Origin: a bacterium
Lineage (GTDB): Bacteria > SAR324 > XYD2-FULL-50-16
Direction: 5' to 3'
NCBI GenBank assembly: GCA_032250835.1
Contig: JAVVEA010000008.1
Span: 1 to 64,000 of the forward strand
DNA: 64,000 nucleotides
The notes beneath the pieces are model-generated. The model ran no database searches, was not told where the DNA came from, and saw nothing but the letters and a program-made list of their open reading frames with translations. A program made the translations under genes and the position numbers. Shown here one piece after another: positions 1-14,472 of the stretch; the stretch's first letter is position 1; the number at the start of each line of letters is the position of its first letter.

Positions 1-3
1 ATC

Positions 4-1512
4 ATGAGCTTGAAAATCAACCATAACGTAGCGGCGCTGAACTCATGGCGCAACTTACAGAAGACGGACTCTGAGATGAACAAAACCTTAGAGCGTTTGT
101 CTTCGGGCAACAAGTTGAACCGGGCGGCCGATGGACCGGCGTCTTTGGTGATTGCCGAGCAGATGAAAGCCCAGGTGGCTTCGATGGAACAGGCCACCCA
201 GAACAGCGAGATGGCCGTTTCTTTGGTGCAAACCGCCGAAGCGAGCTTGGCTGAAGTCAACAACATCTTGATCAGCATGCGCCAGTTAGCGCTGCACGCA
301 GCCAACGAAGGCGGCAACGACGACAAGATGTTAGCCGCCGACCAAGCCGAAATGGACAACGCCTTAAAAACCATCGACGGGATCAGCCAGCAGGCCCAAT
401 TCGGAACCCGGATGTTGCTCGACGGGAGCAACGGGATCGGCGGGGTCGCCGTAGGCGAAGGGATGCGCTTTGTAAAAGCCGAGGTGGACACCGCCTCAAG
501 CCCGGCCGACGGATATAAGATCGACATCTCCGAAGTGGCCACTAAGGCCCGCTTGGAAGGCGAACGCAGCCTAACCCAAGAAGAGATGGACCAGGGCAAT
601 ATCCAGCTGACGCTGCACGAAGGCGGGCGGAGCCTGACCTACTACACCAAGGTCGGCGAAACCATGGACGCCATGTTGCGCAACCTTCAGCTCTTAATCG
701 ACCAGAACGGGTTGAAGCTGGATGTGGGCTTGACCGATGACCAGCGGCTCTTTGTGGAGCACCAAGAATTTGGCTCCGAGCCGAGCTTCGGGGCCATGAC
801 CTCGGTAGAGGGATTATTGACCGAAAATGCCAACGAGCTCGAAGAGGCAGTCCAGGGCAGCGATGTCCAGGGAACCATCGGGGGCGAACTGGCCTACGGC
901 GAAGGTCAATATTTGACCGGTGCCAAAGGCACGGCGGCAGAAGGCCTGACCATCCAATATTCGGGCGGCGTAAAAACCAAGCCCCAGACCGACGATCAGG
1001 GCAACCCGATCTTAGACGACCAAGGGCAACCGGTAGCGCCTGCGGAGATGGCCGAAGGTGCGGCTTATGTGACCAACAACAGCCTGAACTTCCAGGTTGG
1101 ACCCGGTCAGGACATGAACACGCGCATCGACCTGCCGAACTTGAATACCCACACCATGAGCCGTGGGGTGGAGAACGATTCAGGCTACACCTCCTTAGGT
1201 GAAATCGACCTGACCACCTTCCAAGGGGCCCAAGACGCCCTGAAGATGATCGACCAGTCGATTTACGAGGTGACCAGTATGCGGGGTAAATTAGGTGCCT
1301 TCCAGAAGAACACGCTGGAAACGAACCTGAACAACCTGCGCTACAGCCAGGAAAACCTGATCGCCGCTGAGTCGAGCTTGCGGGATGTGGACATGGCCAA
1401 AGAGATGAGCCAGTTCACCAAGCAGCAGATTCTGCTCTCTTCGGGTGTGGCCATGTTGGGCCAAGCGAACCAGACGCCCAAGTCGGTGCTCTCGCTGCTT
1501 AACGGCAACTAA
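4..1512 (+). CDS. fliC: Flagellin (paralog 1)
   Basis: N-terminal MSLKINHNVAAL...LERLSSG.KLNRAADGPA and C-terminal ESSLRDVDMAKEMSQFTKQQIL...QANQTPKSVLSLL are the conserved D0/D1 flagellin termini. Confidence 0.95.
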   Translation: MSLKINHNVAALNSWRNLQKTDSEMNKTLERLSSGNKLNRAADGPASLVIAEQMKAQVASMEQATQNSEMAVSLVQTAEASLAEVNNILISMRQLALHAANEGGNDDKMLAADQAEMDNALKTIDGISQQAQFGTRMLLDGSNGIGGVAVGEGMRFVKAEVDTASSPADGYKIDISEVATKARLEGERSLTQEEMDQGNIQLTLHEGGRSLTYYTKVGETMDAMLRNLQLLIDQNGLKLDVGLTDDQRLFVEHQEFGSEPSFGAMTSVEGLLTENANELEEAVQGSDVQGTIGGELAYGEGQYLTGAKGTAAEGLTIQYSGGVKTKPQTDDQGNPILDDQGQPVAPAEMAEGAAYVTNNSLNFQVGPGQDMNTRIDLPNLNTHTMSRGVENDSGYTSLGEIDLTTFQGAQDALKMIDQSIYEVTSMRGKLGAFQKNTLETNLNNLRYSQENLIAAESSLRDVDMAKEMSQFTKQQILLSSGVAMLGQANQTPKSVLSLLNGN

Positions 1513-2904: not shown

Positions 2905-4338
2905 ATGACTTTGCGAATCAACCATAACGTAGCTGCCATCAACGCCCACCGGAACTTGGTGAACAACGATGCGAAGCTTTCGAAAACCCTGGAGCACCTC
3001 TCCAGCGGGACTAAAATCAACCGGGCAGCCGATGGACCGGCGGCCCTAGTGATCTCTGAACAGATGCGGGCCCAGGTGGCCGGTTTGAGTCAGGCAGTGA
3101 TGAACAGCGAAAGCGCGGTCGCCATGGTGCAGACCGCCGAAGCCAACTTAAACGAGGTCAACCGCCTCTTGGTCAGTATGCGCCAGCTATCGATCCACGC
3201 AGCCAACGAAGGCGGCAACGACGAAGCAATGCTCGAAGCCGACCAGGCCGAATTGGCCAACGCCTTGGACTCCATCGACCGGATCAGCAAAGCCGCTCAG
3301 TACGGCAAGAAACAGCTGCTCGACGGGAGCCATGGGGTCAACGGCATCGCCTCGGGCCCGGACTTGGAGTTCATCAGCGCGAACACCAAAACCAATGCCT
3401 CGCCCCAAAGCGGGTACTCGGTTCAGATCAGCCAAGAAGCGACCCAAGCGAGAGCTTTGGGTAGCCAGGTGCTGACCCAGGACATGATCAACGCCGGTGA
3501 GAAACTGACCATCCAAGAGAATGGCCGCACCGTGCAGGTCATCACCCAGTTGGGTGAAACCCATGAAGAGATCCAGAACCGCTTGAACAACGAGTTCCGC
3601 GAGTCGGAACTGAACCTGGATGCTTACTTTGACCAAGGCCGCTTGACGCTGATCCACCGAGACTATGGTTCGGAAGCAGGCTTCACCGTTTCCAGCTCGA
3701 CGGCAGGCGTCTTAAGCTCTAGGGCCGACACCCCGATGTGGGTGCAGAACGGACATGACGTCCAAGGCACCATCGGGGGCGAGATCGCCAACGGTAAAGG
3801 CCAGATGTTAAGCGGCGGCAAAGGCACCAACGTCGAAGGCTTAGAAGTACGCTTCACCGGCGTGGCGGACCCCTTAAAGCCCGAGGTGGGCCGGGTCTCG
3901 GTTGAGAGTAACGCCTTCACCTTCCAGGTGGGCGGTAACCGCAACCAGATTGTGAAAATCCAGATCCCGAACATGAAGGCCGCCCAGATGGCCAAAAACG
4001 TCTCTAACGAGTCGGGCTACCAGAGCTTGCGGGACTTGGACCTGCGCACGGTGCAGGGCTCCCAGGACGCGCTGCTGCTGATCGACGAAGCGATCGACCA
4101 AGTCTCGAGCACAAGGGCTAACTTGGGTGCGGTGCAGAAAAACACGCTGGAAAGTAACTTGACCAGCTTGAGTGTGGCCCGTGAGAACTTGATCAACGCT
4201 GAATCGGTGATCCGCGATACCGATATGGCCAGTGAGATGAGTGACTTCACCAAGTACCAGATCATGAGCCAAAGCGCGACGGCCATGTTGGCCCAAGCGA
4301 ACCAAACGCCCAACAACGTCTTGAGCTTGTTGAAGTAA
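2905..4338 (+). CDS. fliC: Flagellin (paralog 2)
   Basis: MTLRINHNVAAINAHRNL and DTDMASEMSDFTKYQIMSQSATAMLAQANQTPNNVLSLLK; GAGGAG Shine-Dalgarno upstream. Confidence 0.95.
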   Translation: MTLRINHNVAAINAHRNLVNNDAKLSKTLEHLSSGTKINRAADGPAALVISEQMRAQVAGLSQAVMNSESAVAMVQTAEANLNEVNRLLVSMRQLSIHAANEGGNDEAMLEADQAELANALDSIDRISKAAQYGKKQLLDGSHGVNGIASGPDLEFISANTKTNASPQSGYSVQISQEATQARALGSQVLTQDMINAGEKLTIQENGRTVQVITQLGETHEEIQNRLNNEFRESELNLDAYFDQGRLTLIHRDYGSEAGFTVSSSTAGVLSSRADTPMWVQNGHDVQGTIGGEIANGKGQMLSGGKGTNVEGLEVRFTGVADPLKPEVGRVSVESNAFTFQVGGNRNQIVKIQIPNMKAAQMAKNVSNESGYQSLRDLDLRTVQGSQDALLLIDEAIDQVSSTRANLGAVQKNTLESNLTSLSVARENLINAESVIRDTDMASEMSDFTKYQIMSQSATAMLAQANQTPNNVLSLLK

Positions 4339-4433: not shown

Positions 4434-5741
4434 ATGAAACTAGGACCAGAGCTTTATTCCTCTCAGGCACTGAGAGAGATGAACCAACGGCTGGGTCCCC
4501 AAATGGACCCACCAACCAACCTTAAGCCCGGCGGACGACCGACCGGGAGGGTGGCGGTGATCGCCGGATTAGAAGGCAAGGTTTCGTTGCTACAGGTAGC
4601 CCAGAAGAGTCTGGGCCACATCAAAAAATGGCTCGGCGAGATGCAGGGCTTTTTGGAGAATGCACCGGACCAAGAGGGCCAACTGGCCCCCAGCGTCGCC
4701 AACCGCTTTGTAGAAGACCGCTTGCAACAGATCGGCGGGATCACCGAAGCCACCAGCTTCGGGGCCAAGGCACTGCTCAACGGAAAGAGCGGGGTCTTAG
4801 GCGAAGCCGACGGACCGGGCCTGCAATTTGTGCGGGGCTCGGCGCGGGTGATCAGCAGCATAGGCCGGGGATACCCGGTGGCCATCGACGAATCGGCCCG
4901 ACCGGCCAGCCTGATGGGCGCGGCTTCGGTCAGTCCTTCGGTGATCGCTCAAGAGAGCTGGATTTCGCTTAAAGAAGGCGGGCTGGAGGCTCGCTACCAA
5001 GTGCGGGGTGATGAAGACCCCAGCCAATTGGCCCAGAATCTCCAGCGTTGCATCCAGGCCGCGGGCCTGGACCTGAGTGTTTATTTAACCCGCGACCAGC
5101 GGCTGCTGTTCCTGCACAACCAATTGGGCGGGGAGCCGCGCTTTGAAGGGCTCAGCCAGAAGACCCGGCTGATTTCGGCTAGACCGGGCGATCCGGTCTG
5201 GGCCACGCCTGGCAGGGACGTGTTGGGAAGCATCGGAACCGAACCGGCCCAAGGGCAAGGAGGTTTCTTGATCGGTGCCAAGGGGAATCCCCGCACCGAA
5301 GGGTTGATCATCTACTACGACGGCCAGGTGGACTATCCGGGCCAAGTGGTGGGTTATGTGCGGGTGAGCCAGTCGGGCTTGCTGGTGCCGCTGGATGTAG
5401 CGGGCCAGGAGGTGGAGATCTTAAGCCTGCCGGACCTGCGGCCCAAACAACAGGCCGTGGGCGTGCGTAACGCCAGCGGGTTTAAAAGCCTCGCCCAGAT
5501 CCGTGCGGGAAGCCCGACGGAACGCCGCGATGCGGACCTACTGGTGCAGAAGGCCTTGGGTGAGTTGGGTCAGTTGAGTGAGGAACTGCGCTGGAAAGAG
5601 CAGGTCTACATCAACAAAGCCATCGACCTTTTAAAGGCGGGCAACGAGTTTGAACCGAAGGGTACCGAACTGCTGGGGCTCTCCTCAGACAAGGCCCAGG
5701 CCATGGCCCAGCAGCTAAGGGGCATGATGAAGTCCGCTTAA
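4434..5741 (+). CDS. Divergent flagellin-like protein lacking the canonical D0 termini
   Basis: Central region aligns by eye with the neighbouring flagellins (FGAKALLNG, GRDVLGSIG, GQGGFLIGAKG, NASGFKSLAQI), but RINHN and LAQAN..VL.LL termini are absent. Confidence 0.75.
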   Translation: MKLGPELYSSQALREMNQRLGPQMDPPTNLKPGGRPTGRVAVIAGLEGKVSLLQVAQKSLGHIKKWLGEMQGFLENAPDQEGQLAPSVANRFVEDRLQQIGGITEATSFGAKALLNGKSGVLGEADGPGLQFVRGSARVISSIGRGYPVAIDESARPASLMGAASVSPSVIAQESWISLKEGGLEARYQVRGDEDPSQLAQNLQRCIQAAGLDLSVYLTRDQRLLFLHNQLGGEPRFEGLSQKTRLISARPGDPVWATPGRDVLGSIGTEPAQGQGGFLIGAKGNPRTEGLIIYYDGQVDYPGQVVGYVRVSQSGLLVPLDVAGQEVEILSLPDLRPKQQAVGVRNASGFKSLAQIRAGSPTERRDADLLVQKALGELGQLSEELRWKEQVYINKAIDLLKAGNEFEPKGTELLGLSSDKAQAMAQQLRGMMKSA

Positions 5742-5990
5742 AAAAGCGGCCCAACTTCCGGGCCACCGGAAGCGACGGGAAACCGTCACCCTGCAACACC
5801 CAGGTCTGTTTTACGGCGGGCCTGGGAACCGCAGACCGCCTGAGCGGGAATCCGCTGGGGCTAAGGTTACAGAACCCTTCTGGGTTCAACGCTTTCTTTC
5901 TCCTCTAGAGCTGGGCCGGTCCCCAAAGGACCGGCCTTGTCTCTAACGCAACAGAAGGAACAGGGCGTTGAGCCCATAAGGCTCGACCTG

Positions 5991-6404
5991 GGTCCAAGGA
6001 TGGATCTGATCTCGTAAGAGACGCCCCAAGGATGGGGCCCTCCAAACTAGGTTGAGTTCGTGGACTTGCGGTTCCAGGAAGGAACCCAACTCAGGCAAAG
6101 CAGGATGCTTTGACCAAATCCGGGCAGGATGCCCAAAGGTAAAGCTGCTTCGGCAGCAAACCAAGCGATCGGGCCCATTTATGGGTTCGCTAGTGGCAAC
6201 GGATACGTTCCGAGGGCTCATGGATTGAAGCCCAAGACTACCCACTGGTGGTTAAAAGACGGCGCATGGATGTGTCGTTCTTCAAATCGATCAAAGCATA
6301 AACCGTTGGTCCCGTTGGATGAGGGGGCTGCGGAAGTTGAAAACCCAACGAAGTTTAACAATTTCCAGCCAAGGTAGGCTGGAATCGGAGTCAAGGAGGA
6401 CACC
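5991..6404 (+). promoter_or_regulatory. Array of ~8 GGA-loop stem-loops (putative CsrA/RsmA sites) upstream of flagellin 3
   Basis: ggtcc-AAGGAT-ggatc 5991, gcccc-AAGGAT-ggggc 6023, ggttcc-AGGAA-ggaacc 6070, caaagc-AGGAT-gctttg 6096, gggc-AGGAT-gccc 6122, gggctc-ATGGAT-tgaagccc 6214, gacggcgc-ATGGAT-gtgtcgtt 6258, SD hairpin ggagtc-AAGGAG-gacacc 6387. Confidence 0.75.
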
Positions 6405-7862
6405 ATGTCTCTACGTATCAACCACAACACTGCTGCGATCAATGCACACCGCAATTTGCAGGCAAATGATGCCCAGATGGGCAAGACGCTGGAAAAACTC
6501 TCTAGTGGTTTAAAAATCAACCGGGCCGCCGATGGCCCCGCCGCTTTGGTCATCTCTGAACAGATGCGCGGCCAGATCGTGGGCTTGCAACAGGCCATCG
6601 ACAACTCGGAAACGGCGGTTTCTTTGGTGCAGACCACTGAAGCCAACTTAAACGAAGTCAGCCGGATGCTGGTTAGTGTTCGCCAGCTCGCCGTACATGC
6701 CGCGAACGAAGGCGTAAACGACGAGACTATGCTTGAGGCGGACCAACAGGAAATCAACAACGCCCTGGCCACCATCGACCGGATCGCCAACCAAGCACAG
6801 TTTGGCAACAAACGCCTGCTTGACGGTAGCCAAGGGGCCAGCGGCTCCACCACCGGCGTCGGCTTGGAATTTGCCGGCTCTGGTTTGAAGACCAAGGACA
6901 GCCGCGAATCTGGTTATGAGGTCAAGATCACCCAGAACGCCTCGAAGGCTTCGGTCCAAGGCACGGTGGCTCTGACCGACGAATTGGTTCAAGGCGGGGA
7001 AACCTTCACCTTGATCGAAAACGGCAAGATGGCCAGCTACACCACCCGTATGGACGACAACGTCCAGACGGCCTTGAAGAACTTAGAGTCCGAAGTGAAC
7101 CGCAACGGGTTGAACATCGACCTGGCGCTGTCCGACAACGGTACCTTGGAAGTGAAGCATAAAGAATATGGCTCAGCCTATGGCTTCCAGTTCTCTTCTT
7201 CGACCGCCGGGGTTCTTTCGAAAGAAGCCGGTCAGATCGAAGTCAGTAATGCGGGCATGGACATCAAGGGTACCATCAACGGCGAGTCGGCCATTGGTGA
7301 AGGCCAAGTCCTGACCGGTATGGAAGGCACGGCCAACGTGGATGGTTTACAGGTTCGCTACACTGGCCAAGCTGGCGAGAACGGCGAAATCCCTGAAGGC
7401 GGTGTCGAAGTGGGTCGGGCTTATGTAAGCCAGAACTCCATGAACTTCCAGGTGGGGGGCAACTATGGCCAAACCGTTGGGATCAGCGTGGAGAGCGTGA
7501 ACACTCGGACCATGGCCAACAACATCGAAAACGAGTCGGGTTTCCGCTCGCTGGCTGATGTGGATGTGCGCACCTTCCAAGGGGCACAGGACGCCTTGCG
7601 CTTAGTGGACGACGCCATCACTAGGCTCTCGTCTCGTCGGGGCGACTTGGGTGCCTTCCAGAAAAACACGCTGGAAAGCAACCTGAATAACCTGAAGGTT
7701 GCCCACGAGAACTTGGTTTCTTCGGAGTCGATCTTACGCGACGTGGACATGGCCAAAGAAATGGCTACCTTCACCCGCAACCAGATCATGAGTCAGTCGG
7801 CTACGGCGATGTTGGCCCAGGCCAACCAGACCCCGAGCAACGTACTGCAACTATTGAAGTAA
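6405..7862 (+). CDS. fliC: Flagellin (paralog 3)
   Basis: Conserved flagellin termini; AAGGAGG SD immediately upstream. Confidence 0.95.
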   Translation: MSLRINHNTAAINAHRNLQANDAQMGKTLEKLSSGLKINRAADGPAALVISEQMRGQIVGLQQAIDNSETAVSLVQTTEANLNEVSRMLVSVRQLAVHAANEGVNDETMLEADQQEINNALATIDRIANQAQFGNKRLLDGSQGASGSTTGVGLEFAGSGLKTKDSRESGYEVKITQNASKASVQGTVALTDELVQGGETFTLIENGKMASYTTRMDDNVQTALKNLESEVNRNGLNIDLALSDNGTLEVKHKEYGSAYGFQFSSSTAGVLSKEAGQIEVSNAGMDIKGTINGESAIGEGQVLTGMEGTANVDGLQVRYTGQAGENGEIPEGGVEVGRAYVSQNSMNFQVGGNYGQTVGISVESVNTRTMANNIENESGFRSLADVDVRTFQGAQDALRLVDDAITRLSSRRGDLGAFQKNTLESNLNNLKVAHENLVSSESILRDVDMAKEMATFTRNQIMSQSATAMLAQANQTPSNVLQLLK

Positions 7863-7868
7863 CCTTAA

Positions 7869-7892
7869 AGGTCCCGGCGCAAGTCGGGACCT
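7869..7892 (+). terminator. Strong 3' stem-loop after flagellin 3 (no U-tract; terminator or mRNA-stabilising hairpin)
   Basis: aggtcccggc-GCAA-gtcgggacct. Confidence 0.45.
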
Positions 7893-8357
7893 GAACCTAA
7901 GCGGCAGGGTAATTCCAGCCGCCTTCTTTGAGGGGCCTCACAGCCCTGCAAAGCCGAGGATTCGTCCTCGGAGATCTACCCAGCGCTTGTCGGGGTCGCA
8001 TTGCGGCCCCAACAGGGCAACCTATCGTCGGGGAGACGGTCTTTGGCCGTGACGATAGGTTGCCACCTGCGCTGGCTGGTTCTCTGAGTATGAGTGCCTG
8101 GGGGAAGCCCCAGAGAACTTCTCTGCTGCACCAAAAGGGTGCGGTGCCAAGCATTGCTTGGGAATTGAAAACTAAATCAGAAAGCAGTCCAATAAGTTTG
8201 ACGGACCCTCTGACTTAAGGCTTAACGGCCTGTTAGAGACCCATAGACTCCCTTTTGGGGAGGAGGCCGGTAGACTCGATTTATGCCCAAGAGAGCATTC
8301 TTCTGGGGAAAATGAGGCGACCGGATCGGGGGATAAAAATAAATTGGGGTCGAAAGA

Positions 8358-8968
8358 CTCAGGGGGGACTCCCCTTGGGGCCAAAGGGACTCAGGGGGGA
8401 ATCCGCCTGAATCCCGAACACTCCAAAACCCATCGCCCCGCTTTAAAGGGGCTGAAAAAATTGGGGTCTAAAGGTTCAGGGATTTCTCAATAAGGCAAAT
8501 TAGATGCCAGGGAGGAGTCCAGGCCTTTGAGGCCAACGGAGCGGAGTCGTTTATTTTGGGGCCAAAGGGTCCAGGGGGTAGTCCCCCAGGAGCCGGGAAG
8601 TTTCAGGGATCGGTCCTTGGAACCAGCTAGGGCCCAAAAAGCCGCTCAACCCTTCGGGATTTGTCCCCCAAGGACCTGTGAGGTCCAGGGGGTAGTCCGC
8701 AACTAGAGCATCGGTCCTCAGGGGGAATCCCCACAGGGGACCCGGCAGCAGTCCCAGAGGGGCCCAAAGGGCCCAGGGAGTAGTCCCCAAAGAGCCGCGA
8801 GGGCCCAGGGGAAAGTCCGTCAGAAGCCAACCGGCCCCAGGGGGGAATCCCCAAGGGCCCAGGACAGGGGAGTTAAAAGAATCCAGGGAGCAGTCCCCCA
8901 AGAGCCGGTAGGGCCCAGGGGGTAGTCCCCCACAAGCCAACCGGCCCCAGGGGGAATCCCGAAGGGCC
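8358..8968. repeat. Degenerate tandem repeat tract with ~32-bp period, core CCAGGGGG(T/A)A(G/A)TCCCC
   Basis: Core copies at 8358, 8390, 8571, 8685, ~8718, 8773, 8805, 8837, 8883, 8915, 8947; block 8773-8860 recurs at 8883-8968 (110-bp offset). Confidence 0.8.
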
Positions 8969-9245
8969 AAGGAATCGTTCCAAGGGAAGCCAAAATAACC
9001 GGGCGCAAGCCCCCTGATGGAGCCATGGAGGGGAGTAAACCCTTTGGGTCCCGGTGCTTCTGAAGGTAGGCCCTGGCTGGATTTGGGCGAAAGAGACCGT
9101 TTAAGGGCGGGTTGCAATGAACTGAGTGACTTGGCCGAGTCTTTAGGACTCAGGCCCCTTTGACGCCTGGGGTCTAAAAAAAATCGAGGCACGCCTCGTA
9201 AACCTATCTGGAGCAACGCTCCAAGGTCCCAAGGGACTTAAAAGC

Positions 9246-9994
9246 TTGGGCAAGGACGCCCAAAGTGTGGGTAATCCGCACAAAGTTTACCGGAATGGAT
9301 TCCGGCTGGACCATAGGTCCCCCAATAGCGGGCAGGGTTGCTCGGTATGGGACGCTGACAAAGAAACCGGAATGGATTCCCGGACCCTTATAACAGGGGT
9401 CCAATCGAAATTTGGGCACGGAAGCCCAAAGACCGCCTAGCGGTCATAGAACTTTCAGCGGCATGGACGCCGTTTTTAGCGGAGCCATCCGCAGGCTTTT
9501 ATCGGTGCGCATGGAAGCACGCTGATTTCGGCGACCCTTCGGGGAAGCCAACTATCGGGTACGACCCGAGATCACCTACTATGGGCTTGGAAGCCCAGAG
9601 CCTTTTATTAGTCGGCATGGAAGCCGATAGATTGTGTGGCGGACATGGATGCCCGCAAGACGATCTCCCCGCCAGGAGGCAGGGAAGCCCCAGTCCGAGG
9701 CAAGGAAGCCTCGGTCAGGCATTCGAAGGACCCAGGGAGCACGGATGCGCCCTCCTTCTCCTTCCGGCATGACCGGAAACAACATGGCCCAACGGAATTA
9801 ATTCCGGTGGGTTTGAAGAACCCTAGGCCGATTAACGGGGGCCTAGAGGGCCGGACGCCAAGGCGTCCAAACCATTGGGGCCCCGCTCGATACGAGCGGC
9901 CTCTGGGGCCGAAGGGTTTTAAAAACCCATAAAGGGCCATATTTTAAATCAATCCGTACCAAGGATGGGCGGAGGTAACAACAAGGAGGTTACC
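9246..9994 (+). ncRNA. CsrB/RsmZ-like array of ~14 ANGGAN-loop hairpins contiguous with the flagellin 4 RBS (5' leader or sRNA)
   Basis: GGA-loop hairpins at 9246, 9290, 9367, 9411, 9458, 9501, 9582, 9611, 9639, 9675, 9695, 9735, 9954 and SD hairpin ggtaac-aacAAGGAg-gttacc 9974-9994; all on the flagellin sense strand. Confidence 0.75.
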
Positions 9995-11449
9995 ATGTCT
10001 CTTCGAATCAACCACAACACTGCTGCGATCAATGCACACCGCAATTTGCAGATCAACGACTCCCAAATGGGCAAAACGCTGGAAAAACTTTCTAGTGGTT
10101 TGAAAATCAACCGGGCCGCTGACGGACCGGCTGCTTTGGTCATCAGTGAGCAGATGCGCGGTCAGATCGCCGGTTTGACTCAGGCTATCGACAACTCGGA
10201 AAACGCCGTCAGCATGATCCAAACGACGGAATCTAACTTGAGCGAAGTTAGTAACATGCTGGTTTCGATCCGCCAGTTGGCAATCCACGCCTCCAACGAA
10301 GGCGTCAACAACGAAGAGATGCTTCAGGCCGACCAGCTGGAGATCGAGAACGCCGTCGAGACCATCAACCGGATCTCTAAGCAAGCCCAGTTCGGCAAGC
10401 GCAAGTTGCTGGACGGCACCAACGGTGCCTTGGGTAGCGTAACCGGCGAGAACCTTGAATTTGTCGGTGCCGGTCTGAAAACTTTGGATTCTTCAAAGAG
10501 CGGCTTTGAGGTTAAAATCAACCAAAACGCTTCGAAGGCCAATGCCCAAGGCACGGTTGCCTTAAGTGAAGAAGTGATCCAAGGCGGTGAGACCTTGATG
10601 GTCATCGAAAACGGCAAGACCGCAAAGTACACCACTCAAGCGGACGATACCGCCGACATCGCCATCAAGAACTTGGCCAGCGAGATCGAGCGCAACGGCT
10701 TGGACGTTAAGGTAACCCTAGAAAATGGGGCCGTTAAGGTAACCCACGACAAGTTTGGCTCGGACCATAGCTTCCAGGTTTCTTCGACTACCGCCGGGGT
10801 CCTTTCTAAGGAAGCCGGTCAGATCGAAGTGGCCAACAAAGGCTTGGATATCAAGGGTACCATCAACGGCGAATCGGCCATTGGTAAGGGCCAGGTGTTG
10901 ACGGGCATCGAAGGTGCCCAGAGCGTGGACGGTTTGTCGGTTCGCTTCACCGGTATGGCCGGGACCGATGGGGAAATCCCCGAAGGTGGCGCAGCCGTTG
11001 GTCGGGCTTATATCAGCCAGAACAGCCTGAACTTCCAGGTGGGCGGCAACTATGGCCAGACCGCCGGGATCAGCATCGGCAGCACCCACTCGCGCCAATT
11101 GGCTAACAACGTAGTCAACGAGTCGGGCTTTAAGAGCATTGAAGACTTGGACGTGACTAGTTTCCAAGGGGCTCAGGACACCCTGCGCTTGGTGGACGAA
11201 GCGATCACTCAGATTGCTCGGACCCGTGGCGACATCGGTGCCTTCCAGAAAAATACCCTGGAAAGCAACCTGAACAACTTGCGGGTGGCGAACGAAAACT
11301 TGATCAGTAGTGAGTCGGTGATCCGCGACACGGACATGGCTGCCGAAATGGCCAGCTTCACCCGTAACCAGATCATGTCTCAGTCCGCTACGGCCATGTT
11401 GGCTCAGGCGAACCAAACCCCGAACCAAGTGCTTCGTTTGCTTCAGTAA
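9995..11449 (+). CDS. fliC: Flagellin (paralog 4)
   Basis: Start reassigned to the ATG at 9995 (MSLRINHN) after AAGGAGGT; conserved termini. Confidence 0.95.
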   Translation: MSLRINHNTAAINAHRNLQINDSQMGKTLEKLSSGLKINRAADGPAALVISEQMRGQIAGLTQAIDNSENAVSMIQTTESNLSEVSNMLVSIRQLAIHASNEGVNNEEMLQADQLEIENAVETINRISKQAQFGKRKLLDGTNGALGSVTGENLEFVGAGLKTLDSSKSGFEVKINQNASKANAQGTVALSEEVIQGGETLMVIENGKTAKYTTQADDTADIAIKNLASEIERNGLDVKVTLENGAVKVTHDKFGSDHSFQVSSTTAGVLSKEAGQIEVANKGLDIKGTINGESAIGKGQVLTGIEGAQSVDGLSVRFTGMAGTDGEIPEGGAAVGRAYISQNSLNFQVGGNYGQTAGISIGSTHSRQLANNVVNESGFKSIEDLDVTSFQGAQDTLRLVDEAITQIARTRGDIGAFQKNTLESNLNNLRVANENLISSESVIRDTDMAAEMASFTRNQIMSQSATAMLAQANQTPNQVLRLLQ

Positions 11450-11467
11450 GCCTTAGCTTAGAAACAC

Positions 11468-11536
11468 GGAGGCGGGCGAGGCCCGCCTCCTAGACGACTC
11501 AAGGACGAGCCGTCGAACTTGACCAAGGAGGTTGAG
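11468..11536 (+). promoter_or_regulatory. Intergenic hairpin followed by two GGA-loop hairpins, the second enclosing the flagellin 5 SD
   Basis: ggaggcgggc-gag-gcccgcctcc 11468-11490; gacgactc-AAGGAC-gagccgtc 11493-11514; cttgacc-AAGGA-ggttgag 11518-11536. Confidence 0.65.
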
Positions 11537-12988
11537 ATGTCTTTACGAATCAATCATAACGTAGCGGCGCTCAACTCACACAGAAACCTACTCAACAACG
11601 ATCGGTCCCTTAACCGGACCTTAGAACGTCTCTCGAGTGGGTTGAAGGTGAATCGAGGTGCCGATGGACCGGCGACTTTAGTGATCAGCGAGCAAATGCG
11701 CGCCCAGATTGCCGGCCTAACCCAAGCGATCGATAACTCGGAAAGCGCCATCTCGATGGCGCAGACCAGCGAAGCGAACCTAGGCGAAATCAACCGCCTG
11801 CTGACTTCCATGAGGCAACTTGCCGTGCACGCCGCCAACGAAGGCGTTAACGACACGGGCATGTTGCAGGCAGACCAGCGGGAATTAGAAAACGCCCTGG
11901 CGAGCATCGACCGCATCACTGCCCAGGCCCAGTTTGGTGAGCGCAAGCTGCTAGACGGGAGCAATGGGATTCAAGGGTACACTACCGGAGATAAACTGCA
12001 ATTCATTGAGTCGGGACTAAACTCCAAGGACTCTAGCGAAGCAGGTTACTCCGTGGTGGTGACCCAATCAGCTGAGCGCGCGAGCCGCACCGGTAGCCAA
12101 GCGCTAAGCGCCGACTTGATCGCCCAGGGCGAAGAGTTGATGCTGATCCAAGGCGGCCAATCGGCTCGGTACGTGACCCAATCAGACGACAGCCTAGATC
12201 AGGTGGTCGCCAAACTGCAATCCGAGGTGGACCGCAACGGAATGCAACTGGAAATAAGGGTCAGCGAAGCGGGTATGTTGAGCGTTACTCATAAGGAATA
12301 TGGCTCTGCGCCGGACTTCCAGGTCTTCTCTAAAACGGCGGGAGTGCTTTCGGCCGAAGCCGGAGCGATTGAAACGGTCCAAAATGGTCGGGACGTAAAA
12401 GGTACCCTCAACGGCCAGTCTGCCGTTGGCGAAGGCCTTTACTTGACCGGTATGGAGGGAGCTAAAGAGGTTGATGGCCTGAAGGTGAAAATCCAAGGCC
12501 AACTCGACCAAGAAATCCCTGATGGAGGAGTCGAAGTGGGACGGGTGTTCCTGTCCCAAAATGCCTTAAAGTTTCAGGTTGGTGGTAACTACGGTCAGAC
12601 CGTAAGCATGAACCTGAAAGACGTGTCCACCCGCCAATTAGGGAAGGGCATTCAGAACGAGAGTGGATTTAGGTCTTTGGCCGACTTAGATGTGCAATCG
12701 TTTCAAGGAGCGCAAGACGCCATGCAGTTGATTGATCAAGCGATCACCGAGGTGAGTAGCGTCCGCGGCGAGTTGGGGGCTTTCCAGAAGAATACCCTGG
12801 AATCCAACCTAAACAACCTGCGGGTAGCCAACGAAAACTTGGTGGCCTCTGAATCGGTCTTGCGTGATACGGACATGGCCAGTGAAATGGCCCAGTTCAC
12901 GAGAGGGCAAATCATGAGCGAATCCGCCATGGCCATGTTGGCGCAAGCCAACCAGGTGCCCGAAAACGTCTTGACGCTGCTCAGTTAA
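11537..12988 (+). CDS. fliC: Flagellin (paralog 5)
   Basis: Start reassigned to the ATG at 11537 (MSLRINHN) after AAGGAGGT; conserved termini. Confidence 0.95.
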   Translation: MSLRINHNVAALNSHRNLLNNDRSLNRTLERLSSGLKVNRGADGPATLVISEQMRAQIAGLTQAIDNSESAISMAQTSEANLGEINRLLTSMRQLAVHAANEGVNDTGMLQADQRELENALASIDRITAQAQFGERKLLDGSNGIQGYTTGDKLQFIESGLNSKDSSEAGYSVVVTQSAERASRTGSQALSADLIAQGEELMLIQGGQSARYVTQSDDSLDQVVAKLQSEVDRNGMQLEIRVSEAGMLSVTHKEYGSAPDFQVFSKTAGVLSAEAGAIETVQNGRDVKGTLNGQSAVGEGLYLTGMEGAKEVDGLKVKIQGQLDQEIPDGGVEVGRVFLSQNALKFQVGGNYGQTVSMNLKDVSTRQLGKGIQNESGFRSLADLDVQSFQGAQDAMQLIDQAITEVSSVRGELGAFQKNTLESNLNNLRVANENLVASESVLRDTDMASEMAQFTRGQIMSESAMAMLAQANQVPENVLTLLS

Positions 12989-13128
12989 CCTACTCGGTTA
13001 ACCCAAGCCGCTCCTCGCTGGTGAGGTCCTTCGGGACCTTGCCAGCGAGGTCCTTGGCGTTCTCTTAAGGGAGTCCATTCTGCTCCAAAGGCTCGCGCGC
13101 GCCCCCCCCTTTAAAAAAATAAGAGCCA

Positions 13129-13506
13129 ACCTAGCCTTTTCAAGGCCCATCCCCCGCCCGCTCAACTTGAGACCCTTAGACCGCCTGGGCTTGTTTGGCT
13201 TGGCCTGCCCTTGGGCGAACGCCCGCACCGGCCCCACTCACCCTAAGCCTTTGCTAGCACCGGACTCAGCGCACCGAAAGGGCTAGAACTGAGGAGCTGT
13301 TTGGAGCTTTCAACTTCGTGGTTTTAGGCGCTCTCGGCTGGTTTAGATTCCACTTTAAACCGCTCGCTCGCAAAGCGCTGACCTAGCCTTTTCAAGGCCC
13401 ATCCCCCACCCGCTCAACTTGAGATCCTTAGACCGCCTGGGCTTGTTTGGCTTGGCCTGCCCTTGGGCGAACGCCCGCACCGGCCCCACTCACCCTAAGC
13501 CTTTGC
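13129..13506. repeat. 126-bp direct repeat (13129-13254 and 13381-13506)
   Basis: acctagccttttcaagg...ccctaagcctttgc occurs twice with 2 mismatches, separated by 126 unrelated bp. Confidence 0.9.
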
Positions 13507-13587
13507 CGTTGGTGCGGGTATGGCGGAGTTCCGCTCTTTAGGACTTTGGGAGCAAAATCAGGAGGGCTTAGATCCTGCGGGGGCGGC

Positions 13588-14472
13588 TTAGGGGGATTGG
13601 TTTTCGAGGTCCTGGGCATAGTCATGGTGGGACAAAAATTCTGCTTTAAAAAGCTCGCCTAAAAAGAGCCGATCTACTGATTCAAAGGCCGCGTCCCGGA
13701 GGGCGGCTTCAGGGTAGATACCAAACACACAAGAGCCGGACCCACTGAGCAAGACCGCCGGGGCCCCGGTTTTCTGTAAAACCAGCTCAATCTGTTTTAA
13801 GGCCGGATACTTGGCTTTTAGGGGCTCAAAAAAATCATTGCCCTGGGGCTGAAGCTGTTTGATCAAGGAAGGTGGGTAAGGCCCAGGCGGGAGCTTGCGG
13901 GCCGAGTGCTGGGCCAACTGATAGGCCTCTTTGGTGGAGATGCTTAAGTCCGGCTTGACCAGCAACAAAGACCAATCCCCTTGGATTTCCAAAGCGCAAA
14001 ATTGTTCGCCAATACCGCGCGCCTGTTGGGGCCTGGGGTCTAAGAAAAAGGGGACATCTGCGCCCAAGCTACGGGCAATCTCAAAGAGCCTTTGGGGCGG
14101 GATCTTGAGGTTTAAAAGTTGGTTGAGGGCTACCAGAGCCCCGGCGGCGTTGCCGCTACCTCCGCCTAGGCCCGCTCCGTGCGGGATCTGTTTGGTCAGC
14201 TTGACGGCCATCTGGAATCGGGCCGATACCTCGTCCTCCAGGGCCTTGATGGCGCGGACCACCAGGTTGTGCTGGGGTTCGCAAAGCTCGGGCTCGCTTA
14301 AGAACCAAAGCCCCTCTTGCTCAAAGGGCAGGAATTCGAGGGTATCATAGAGGGAAATGGGGATCAGGTCCAGTTCCAGCTCATGGTACCCGTCGGGTCG
14401 CCGGTGTTGGACGTAGAGGTGTAGATTGACCTTCGCCGGGGTGCGGATAACCCCGGCGCGTTCCAACTTCAT
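13588..14472 (-). CDS. ispE: 4-diphosphocytidyl-2-C-methyl-D-erythritol kinase
   Basis: PAKVNL, KQIPHGAGLGGGSGNAA, LGADVPFF and LSGSGSCVF GHMP-kinase motifs. Confidence 0.95.
   Translation of the reverse strand: MKLERAGVIRTPAKVNLHLYVQHRRPDGYHELELDLIPISLYDTLEFLPFEQEGLWFLSEPELCEPQHNLVVRAIKALEDEVSARFQMAVKLTKQIPHGAGLGGGSGNAAGALVALNQLLNLKIPPQRLFEIARSLGADVPFFLDPRPQQARGIGEQFCALEIQGDWSLLLVKPDLSISTKEAYQLAQHSARKLPPGPYPPSLIKQLQPQGNDFFEPLKAKYPALKQIELVLQKTGAPAVLLSGSGSCVFGIYPEAALRDAAFESVDRLFLGELFKAEFLSHHDYAQDLENQSP

Follow-up and report, generated by a model that had tools for sequence, protein, structure and literature searches.

The flagellin locus and the hairpin array

The window analysed here is a stretch of 64,000 nucleotides (nt) from the start of contig C42 in a bacterial genome of 3.66 Mb and 43 contigs. 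Its first 13 kb comprises flagellin genes in a cluster, all on the same strand. The subject of this report is a run of short hairpins with GGA in their loops, which takes up the 3′ third of a 2.1-kb spacer separating two of these genes, fla1 and fla2 (Table 1). This spacer is non-coding by appearance: 40 stop-to-stop frames of at least 40 codons gave no tblastn match in the loci of relatives, and four spacer open reading frames (ORFs) had no Pfam match. By flagellin search, the nearest named relative is a "Candidatus Lambdaproteobacteria bacterium" and the other relatives are mostly named "SAR324 cluster bacterium".

The region upstream of fla2 can be divided into a distal array, a structured spacer and a proximal pair of hairpins next to the start codon. 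The distal array has twelve hairpins, with GGA at 9254, 9297, 9374, 9420, 9465, 9513, 9589, 9619, 9647, 9683, 9704 and 9743, which places it at −740 to −250 relative to the fla2 start. The CsrA core consensus CANGGANG is fitted exactly by nine of the twelve. A perfect, or strict, hairpin is defined here as an NNGGAN hexaloop closed by at least four contiguous pairs, with G·U allowed, and an imperfect one has one mismatch, a bulge, a three-pair stem or a larger loop. By this definition the sense strand of 9246–9994 holds 8 perfect and approximately 6 imperfect GGA-hexaloop hairpins.

The last two hairpins, at 9953–9994, fold at −15.1 kcal/mol, and only 1 of 200 shuffles is as stable. Their layout is that of a predicted classical two-site CsrA operator of the hag/flaA type, belonging to fla2, in which the second site covers the Shine–Dalgarno (SD) sequence. 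The hairpin at 9457–9474, which is accompanied by UUUUU at 9473–9477, is weak: its folding energy is −8.4 kcal/mol, and 18 of 200 shuffles are as stable.

Table 1. Coordinates of features in the flagellin cluster of the window
Feature	Position	Strand	Remarks
Flagellin gene	4–1500	+	
Flagellin gene	2905–4335	+	
Flagellin-like ORF, 435 amino acids	4434–5741	+	approximately 25% identity to fla2 (tblastn); no Pfam match at E 0.001
fla1 leader with smaller GGA-loop array, proximal hairpin and SD	5992–6404	+	GGA in 8 of 22 loops of the minimum free energy (MFE) fold
fla1 flagellin, 485 amino acids, upstream neighbour	6405–7862	+	73% identity to fla2 (tblastn)
GC hairpin 3′ of fla1 stop, without U-tract	7869–7892	+	−20.3 kcal/mol; 0 of 200 shuffles as stable
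5′ part of fla1–fla2 spacer, non-coding, without GGA-loop array	7893–9245	+	no GGA in MFE hairpin loops
Distal array, 12 GGA-loop hairpins	9246–9752	+	spacing 21–77 nt; approximately 500 bases
Perfect stems	9246–9263, 9290–9305, 9411–9430, 9457–9474, 9582–9597, 9611–9628, 9695–9714	+	
Imperfect stems	9367–9383, 9501–9526, 9639–9656, 9676–9691, 9735–9752, 9953–9973	+	
Structured spacer, GC-rich hairpins without GGA loops, 200 nt	9753–9952	+	
Palindromic hairpin followed by UUU, in structured spacer	9786–9813	+	−14 kcal/mol; 0 of 200 shuffles as stable
Proximal hairpin, like binding site 1 (BS1)	9953–9973	+	loop AAGGAU
SD hairpin, like binding site 2 (BS2)	9974–9994	+	ggtaac-AACAAGGAG-gttacc; SD in loop; ATG at 9995
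fla2 flagellin, 484 amino acids	9995–11449	+	Pfam Flagellin_N 9.8e-34, Flagellin_C 2.8e-21
Spacer before fla3, 87 nt: 3′ hairpin, BS1-like hairpin and SD	11450–11536	+	BS1-like loop AAGGAC
GC hairpin 3′ of fla2, similar to that of fla1	11468–11490	+	−22.9 kcal/mol
fla3 flagellin	11537–12988	+	

Enrichment and strand specificity

The strict hairpins of 9246–9995 number 8 on the plus strand and 0 on the minus strand. Across 1000 dinucleotide shuffles of this region, the count averaged 0.42 and never exceeded 4, so that none of the shuffled sequences reached 8. In the MFE fold of 9200–10010, GGA lies in 11 of 26 hairpin loops on the plus strand and in none of 25 on the minus strand, and in 60 shuffles folded in this way the number of GGA-holding loops averaged 1.37 and peaked at 4. 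As both strands fold stably, with folding z values of −10.3 (plus) and −6.0 (minus), the stems alone cannot tell the strand. Instead, it is the loops that do so.

A structure-free count leads to the same strand. Between 9251 and 9989, CANGGANG occurs 11 times on the plus strand and 0 times on the minus strand, while the genome as a whole contains 1371 copies, or 0.187 per kb per strand. When all 750-nt windows of the genome are ranked by this count, the array is first with 11 and the next best windows, which include the fla1 leader and a coding peptide repeat, have 4. In addition, the array is the densest cluster (8, with a runner-up of 4) among the 2551 strict hairpins of the genome; the clusters of three strict hairpins lie mostly within ORFs and have weak stems. 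As read from the letters, the array loops match the core of the published CsrA/RsmE consensus, (A/U)CANGGANG(U/A), which is given with citation of Schubert 2007 (PMC6849547). That the element is an array of CsrA sites as such is very likely.

A separate CANGGANG cluster at C42:100145–100277, beyond the window, was rejected as an array, being a coding peptide repeat. Here, a five-fold repeat of MPMDDAHKG ends a 227-codon ORF and mimics the RNA motif at the nucleotide level. The peptide repeat resembles a Met/His-rich metal-binding tail.

A first-pass annotation, made from the letters of the window, had described approximately 14 GGA-loop hairpins joined to a flagellin ribosome-binding site, had taken the loops to be CsrA/RsmA targets and had read the differing stems with conserved loops as a mark of selection at the RNA level. 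All of the listed hairpins were found in the sequence. The excess of GGA loops over shuffled sequence and over the opposite strand holds in the strict count and in the fold, the loops agree with the published consensus, and the junction with the ribosome-binding site proved to be the hag/flaA-type pair described above. The pattern of differing stems and conserved loops is borne out within the array and, as explained below, across related genera.

CsrA and FliW

The two proteins that such an array would involve are both encoded, by adjacent genes. The csrA gene is single copy and specifies 77 amino acids (C11:278838–279071; PF02599, 95.4 bits). It is adjoined by fliW, also single copy (PF02623, 129.8 bits), in the order flgL-like gene, csrA, fliW. 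The CsrA sequence aligns with E. coli CsrA (1y00) over residues 1–56 and with chain 5dmb_D over residues 2–72, a span that covers the C-terminal extension; entry 5DMB is the CsrA–FliW complex. By alignment, the protein is predicted to be a CsrA of the FliW type, with the C-terminal extension that FliW contacts. FliA (243 bits) and RpoN are also encoded in the genome.

Recurrence in related genomes and origin of the array

BLASTN with the array gave 0 matches in 40 relatives. When a sensitive BLASTN was run against the closest orthologous spacer, which precedes a flagellin that is 84% identical, the last 60 nt aligned together with one weak piece of 142 nt. Nevertheless, flagellins of at least five related lineages are preceded by arrays whose stems are unrelated but whose loops are again c-A(U/A)GGAN-g. 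Examples of these lineage-specific stems are gctccct-AUGGAA-ggggagc, gcccggc-AUGGAC-gcugggc, uucggc-AUGGAA-gccgaa and gucauucc-AUGGAA-ggaaugau.

The counts for the individual lineages refer to the 800 nt upstream of flagellins in loci that were the closest flagellin relatives, two of which, L053 and L131, were included with their counts already known: sense copies of CANGGANG number 7 (G003-like), 9 (G007-like), 8 (L131), 7 (G006), 3 and 5 (G010) and 4 (L053). Over the eight upstream regions beyond fla2, namely fla1 and seven from relatives, the sense strand has 3–9 copies and the antisense strand 0–1. The number of strict hairpins observed was reached by 0 of 500 shuffles in five of these eight regions and by 2–3 of 500 in fla1, G010 10778 and L053. 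Two sets of data are unselected, one being a count for the class that covers 16 loci with 54 flagellin spacers, in which there are 87 strict hairpins on the sense strand versus 17 on the antisense strand. The other is a table of hairpins in upstream regions, where only four regions have at least 4 strict hairpins and marine SAR324 loci have 0–1. Larger arrays are thus confined to the nearest genera.

The loops are more uniform than the genomic background. Of 70 sense hairpins from 11 flagellin spacers of the clade, 53 have A at the first loop position and 48 have a C–G closing pair, and the corresponding genome background values are 20% and 16%. Asymmetric loops that are kept on variable stems are the reverse of a DNA operator and are as expected under selection on an RNA–protein contact; on the evidence of these sequences, recurrence with unrelated stems argues for selection on the RNA motif. 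The two-site operator design also precedes many flagellin genes in the clade. Here, the GGA of the SD lies in a strict hexaloop at 22 of 59 clade flagellin starts, with 12 different inner stems (e.g., AUAC/GUAU, CUAC/GUAG and CUUC/GAAG).

As to how the arrays arose, near-identical relatives differ by gain or loss of units of approximately 90–180 nt (L128 versus L050, and L129 versus L130), and the array in the window retains traces of three units of approximately 167 nt that have a common first hairpin and 65% column identity. Together, these observations indicate that arrays grow by duplication. A young tandem repeat, similar to a variable-number tandem repeat, was considered for the window and rejected, as the units are only 65% identical and Tandem Repeats Finder, at a score of 30, reported a 32-nt repeat at 8344–8404 and nothing in 9246–9994. 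The window array thus appears, from its sequence, to be old. In five lineages, the arrays stop 250–350 nt before the ATG, and the gap that follows is free of GGA hairpins.

The relatives also carry many flagellin genes. Up to 36 flagellin matches per genome were found, and the genomes of a sister family (G024–G040) have 15–36 in long tandem runs, an unusually large family of flagellin paralogues.

Possible transcription of the array

A scan of 5600–13600 for the sigma70 consensus found no site on the plus strand, and a relaxed scan returned only TTTAAA-16-TATTTT at 9918, which is weak, and TTAACG-16-TAGACT at 8222. The best sigma28-like site near fla2, GTGGGTTT-N12-GCCGATTA at 9808–9834, is also weak, matching 11 of 16 positions at −188. 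Within C42:1–14000, there is no sigma28 site with at least 13 of 16 matches and no sigma54-like site, the best candidate for the latter matching 5 of 12 specified positions. Elsewhere in the genome, sigma28 promoters take the form TAAAGTTT-N11/12-GCCGATAA and match 15–16 of 16 positions, for example before flgM-like and fliD-like genes.

Tandem near-perfect sigma28 promoters are present at two contig ends, C7:1–300 on the minus strand and C15:41664–41974 on the plus strand. The last 77 nt of both ends are the same as the start of C42, which encodes a flagellin N-terminus (window positions 1–60), from which it follows that the contigs were broken during assembly at flagellin genes with identical 5′ ends. 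Sigma28 probably drives the first flagellin of the cluster, through a short leader without CANGGANG or CsrA-type hairpins.

Downstream of fla2, the spacer before fla3 contains an operator only and has no room for a promoter between the 3′ hairpin of fla2 and that operator. The arrangement points to transcriptional read-through or to a long transcript that is processed, and a flagellin transcript would then include the array. Thus, the missing internal promoters, the promoter-less spacer of fla3 and the one-strand arrangement of the cluster suggest that the array is co-transcribed with fla2.

Sigma28-like promoters at C3:80414 (minus strand) and in the C3:75646 region (L049) precede a fliD-like ORF by 572 nt and a flagellin by approximately 364 nt, respectively, and long 5′ leaders may be usual for the late flagellar genes of this organism. 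In addition, a perfect sigma28 promoter (16 of 16) at C39:57916 on the minus strand is followed by approximately 1.1 kb with no ORF of at least 80 amino acids. It may drive a non-coding RNA or a small protein of the flagellar regulon.

Relationship to known CsrA targets and sponges

Three kinds of RNA offer themselves for comparison. In Bacillus subtilis, the hag leader and the Hag–FliW–CsrA partner switch were described by Yakhnin 2007 and Mukherjee 2011 (here taken from the review PMC7652899). The proximal pair at 9953–9994 resembles the hag leader in its two-site design, with one site over the SD. The partner genes are also alike, as csrA adjoins fliW and a flgL-like gene, and CsrA has the C-terminal extension that contacts FliW. 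Unlike the hag leader, which in that account has two sites only and a nearby sigma-D promoter, the locus described here has at least five flagellin paralogues in a cluster and no strong sigma28 promoter in the spacer. A short 5′ untranslated region (UTR) of the hag/flaA type would span 45–90 nt from a sigma28/sigma-D promoter; the best site in the spacer here matches 11 of 16 positions and lies at −188, and the genome does have FliA and perfect sigma28 sites elsewhere.

A closer likeness in proposed function is offered by the flaA mRNA of Campylobacter jejuni, which was reported by Dugar et al. 2016 as a dual-function CsrA target and sponge in the CsrA–FliW system (PMC4894983). As is predicted for the present case, it is a flagellin transcript of a FliW-using bacterium without CsrB-type small RNAs (sRNAs), with two ANGGA stem-loops of which the second lies over the ribosome-binding site. 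In that work, the mRNA is proposed to titrate CsrA away from other flagellar mRNAs. The flaA 5′ UTR is 45 nt long and holds two sites, whereas approximately 12 extra sites, whose place on the mRNA is a prediction, lie here at 250–740 nt upstream, 6–7 times as many. A second difference is that the titration by flaA was demonstrated by experiment, while that by the present array is predicted.

The third comparison is with CsrB/CsrC and RsmX/Y/Z of the Gammaproteobacteria (Rfam clan CL00106), in which many GGA motifs likewise lie in hairpin loops of a non-coding RNA. The capacity is similar, 12–14 sites against the 13–22 motifs given for CsrB or CsrC (PMC6546359). Unlike these sRNAs, the array has a flagellin gene physically linked to it, has no match in Rfam and has no GacA/UvrY-type box nearby. 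Specifically, Rfam gave 0 matches at gathering score across the window and nothing in 9246–9994 at E values up to 10, and no GacA-box-like site was found near the array at up to 3 mismatches from the consensus. The host differs as well. The presence of fliW is anti-correlated with BarA–UvrY, as reported in the review PMC7652899, and the array host uses FliW. The Bdellovibrio sRNA APsRNA1 appears in PMC3627812, where CsrA goes unmentioned in the main text. The first-pass label "CsrB-like" therefore holds for the architecture and fails for family membership, the search against CsrB, RsmY and RsmZ in Rfam having been negative in 9246–9994.

FliW-using bacteria are considered to rely on a protein antagonist, the two-site flaA leader being the only RNA helper described in the literature cited, and the multi-site CsrA sponge RNAs known there are from Gammaproteobacteria (PMC4894983, PMC7652899). 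A literature search found no description of such an array, and no paper listed combined SAR324 with CsrA, with most subscription journals and supplements lying outside the search. On sequence grounds, the array would be a variant of the known CsrA sponges, in a FliW-using lineage and outside the described sponge families.

Proposed function

The array at 9246–9752 may act as a CsrA-binding decoy or reservoir that is tied to flagellin expression, is carried on a long flagellin transcript and works alongside FliW, a reading to which we give about an even chance (probability near 0.5). In this model, the array RNA would be either the leader of fla2 or a stretch between cistrons in an RNA that reads through the tandem flagellin genes. 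CsrA dimers would bind the c-ANGGAN-g loops, and the proximal pair would, like its counterparts in hag and flaA, block the ribosome. Beside this operator, the 12 distal sites could hold up to approximately 6 CsrA dimers, making fla2 the most heavily CsrA-loaded target while flagellin export is blocked. At the same time, the array would be a CsrA sink that lowers free CsrA for fla1, fla3, fliF and the flagellins of contig C3, which have weaker leaders. This sink would operate alongside FliW, which would be released upon flagellin export. Here, we infer transcription, CsrA binding, stoichiometry and sink function from the sequence.

The first-pass annotation had likewise proposed that the flagellin mRNA is both a target and a sink of CsrA. 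The operator, the csrA and fliW genes and the strand-specific array agree with this proposal. Less favourable to it, no good promoter or terminator marks the transcription unit, and it is by inference only that the array and fla2 are joined on one RNA.

Several observations weigh against a decoy on the flagellin transcript. The strong hairpins 3′ of the flagellin genes (−20 to −23 kcal/mol) could terminate or process transcripts, and the 200-nt gap at 9753–9952, where weak sites occur, could hide a promoter, which would place the array upstream of the fla2 start. A search of sequencing runs returned no RNA run containing the stretch and one DNA run with 6% of its words, and is silent on expression. 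The transcribed strand gained nothing from a comparison of G·U with A·C wobble pairs (7 versus 6), which was uninformative, so the strand is assigned from the identity of the motif and from its shared orientation with the SD. Finally, the closest flagellin found among the genome and metagenome contigs scanned was 84% identical, too distant for an alignment-based covariation analysis.

Two of the alternatives accept CsrA as the ligand. Action could be purely in cis. Repression would then be cooperative and switch-like, with many CsrA dimers occupying a single leader, or the dimers would shield the fla2 mRNA or make it less stable, and the CsrA pool would not be titrated to any meaningful extent. 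CsrA dimers bridge sites that are 10–63 nt apart. The 21–77 nt spacing of the array suits such bridging, and the array is tied to one gene. Furthermore, the B. subtilis ratio of Hag to FliW to CsrA dimer, approximately 1:1:1, leaves little free CsrA to titrate (PMC6529632). An effect confined to cis is nevertheless unlikely, as the distal sites are 250–740 nt from the SD, far past any known bridging distance to the operator, and array size varies freely among paralogues and lineages, as would be expected of a capacity element. A comparably improbable alternative is a separate sRNA gene, analogous to CsrB/RsmZ, with a promoter near 9200 and an end at 9786–9813 or in part at 9457–9477, the fla2 mRNA then starting within 9810–9950. 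This would explain why the arrays of five lineages stop 250–350 nt before the ATG and leave a gap without GGA hairpins, and the hairpin at 9786–9813 (−14 kcal/mol, 0 of 200 shuffles) is indeed followed by UUU and abuts the sigma28-like site. But no promoter-like site was found 5′ of the array, the sigma28-like site scores 11 of 16 versus 15–16 of 16 for real genomic sites, no GacA-box-like element lies near the array, and each candidate terminator has either a short U-run or a weak stem. The last point also bears on the earlier suggestion that UUUUU after 9457–9474 might release part of the array as an sRNA: the U-run is present, but the hairpin before it is a single weak one (−8.4 kcal/mol).

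The remaining two alternatives dispense with CsrA or with function. The loops could serve a different RNA-binding protein or be RNase sites, or the stems could be DNA inverted repeats for a transcription factor, the likeness to CsrA sites being coincidental. CsrA binding of the array is a prediction, the wobble-pair test did not prove the strand, and the same spacer holds an unrelated G-rich hairpin repeat. Another factor is very unlikely all the same: an asymmetric, conserved loop on a variable stem is opposite to what a DNA operator would display, loop and closing pair together make the CsrA consensus, and the same motif forms the SD hairpin, which is necessarily on the mRNA. Least probable is a neutral by-product, in which the hairpins are functionless and were left behind when flagellin leaders duplicated or the spacer was amplified. 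The three units of approximately 167 nt with a common first hairpin do suggest an old triplication, and near-identical relatives do differ by insertion or loss of units. However, this is not a young repeat, as the units have only 65% identity and 12 hairpins still keep their stems and GGA loops, and arrays with unrelated stems recur in at least five lineages with antisense CANGGANG counts of 0–1.

A decoy array working with FliW would have wider consequences. It is possible, though doubtful, that RNA decoys on the scale of CsrB evolved in a FliW-using lineage by being built into tandem flagellin transcripts, with the number of decoys setting the order and threshold at which 8 or more flagellins escape CsrA. 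Multi-site CsrA sponges would then have arisen independently a second time, outside the Gammaproteobacteria, and the assembly of a multi-flagellin filament would follow an RNA-encoded hierarchy. More generally, a 12-site array that is linked to a flagellin gene and recurs with unrelated sequence in several genera would show that, where flagellin synthesis is under the guard of CsrA, decoy RNAs against it arise easily, and it would provide a way to rank many flagellin paralogues.

Neighbouring leaders, spacers and other CsrA-type sites

The fla1 leader has 4 copies of CANGGANG on the plus strand and 0 on the minus strand. It also contains a partial match to CsrB at 6072–6157, which at 16.2 bits is sub-threshold (gathering score 71). 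The hairpin in its proximal BS1 position (6363–6380) has the loop AAGGUA; the GGA of fla2, fla3 and the orthologues is GGU here, and CsrA control of fla1 may be weaker as a result.

The flagellin at 2905 is preceded by no CsrA-type leader. Its 1.4-kb upstream spacer has 0 strict hairpins on the sense strand, which shows that long spacers are not GGA-rich by default. The ORF at 4434–5741 may encode a divergent flagellin-like protein or a hook-associated protein. A strong hairpin that lacks a U-tract stands at the end of every flagellin gene.

The long flagellin spacers carry a second type of hairpin. This is a G-rich repeat on the sense strand, with a period of approximately 32 nt, at approximately 8340–8960 and at 2033–2260, whose units include CCAGGGGG-UAGU/GAAU-CCCCC hairpins and fall into repeat families D1–D4. 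It is nearly confined to these spacers, as 11 of 15 genomic matches to the motif lie in the cluster. In the relative G010 (L037), a similar GGGGGG-UAGU-UUCCCCC hairpin occurs within repeated GGA units.

Outside the flagellin cluster, the second-densest group of GGA hexaloops in the genome lies in the fliE–fliF spacer (C39:127530–127783, minus strand; L208 approximately 2030–2290). Its hairpins include cggc-AAGGAA-gccg and gccg-ACGGAU-uggc, and fliF may be another CsrA target.

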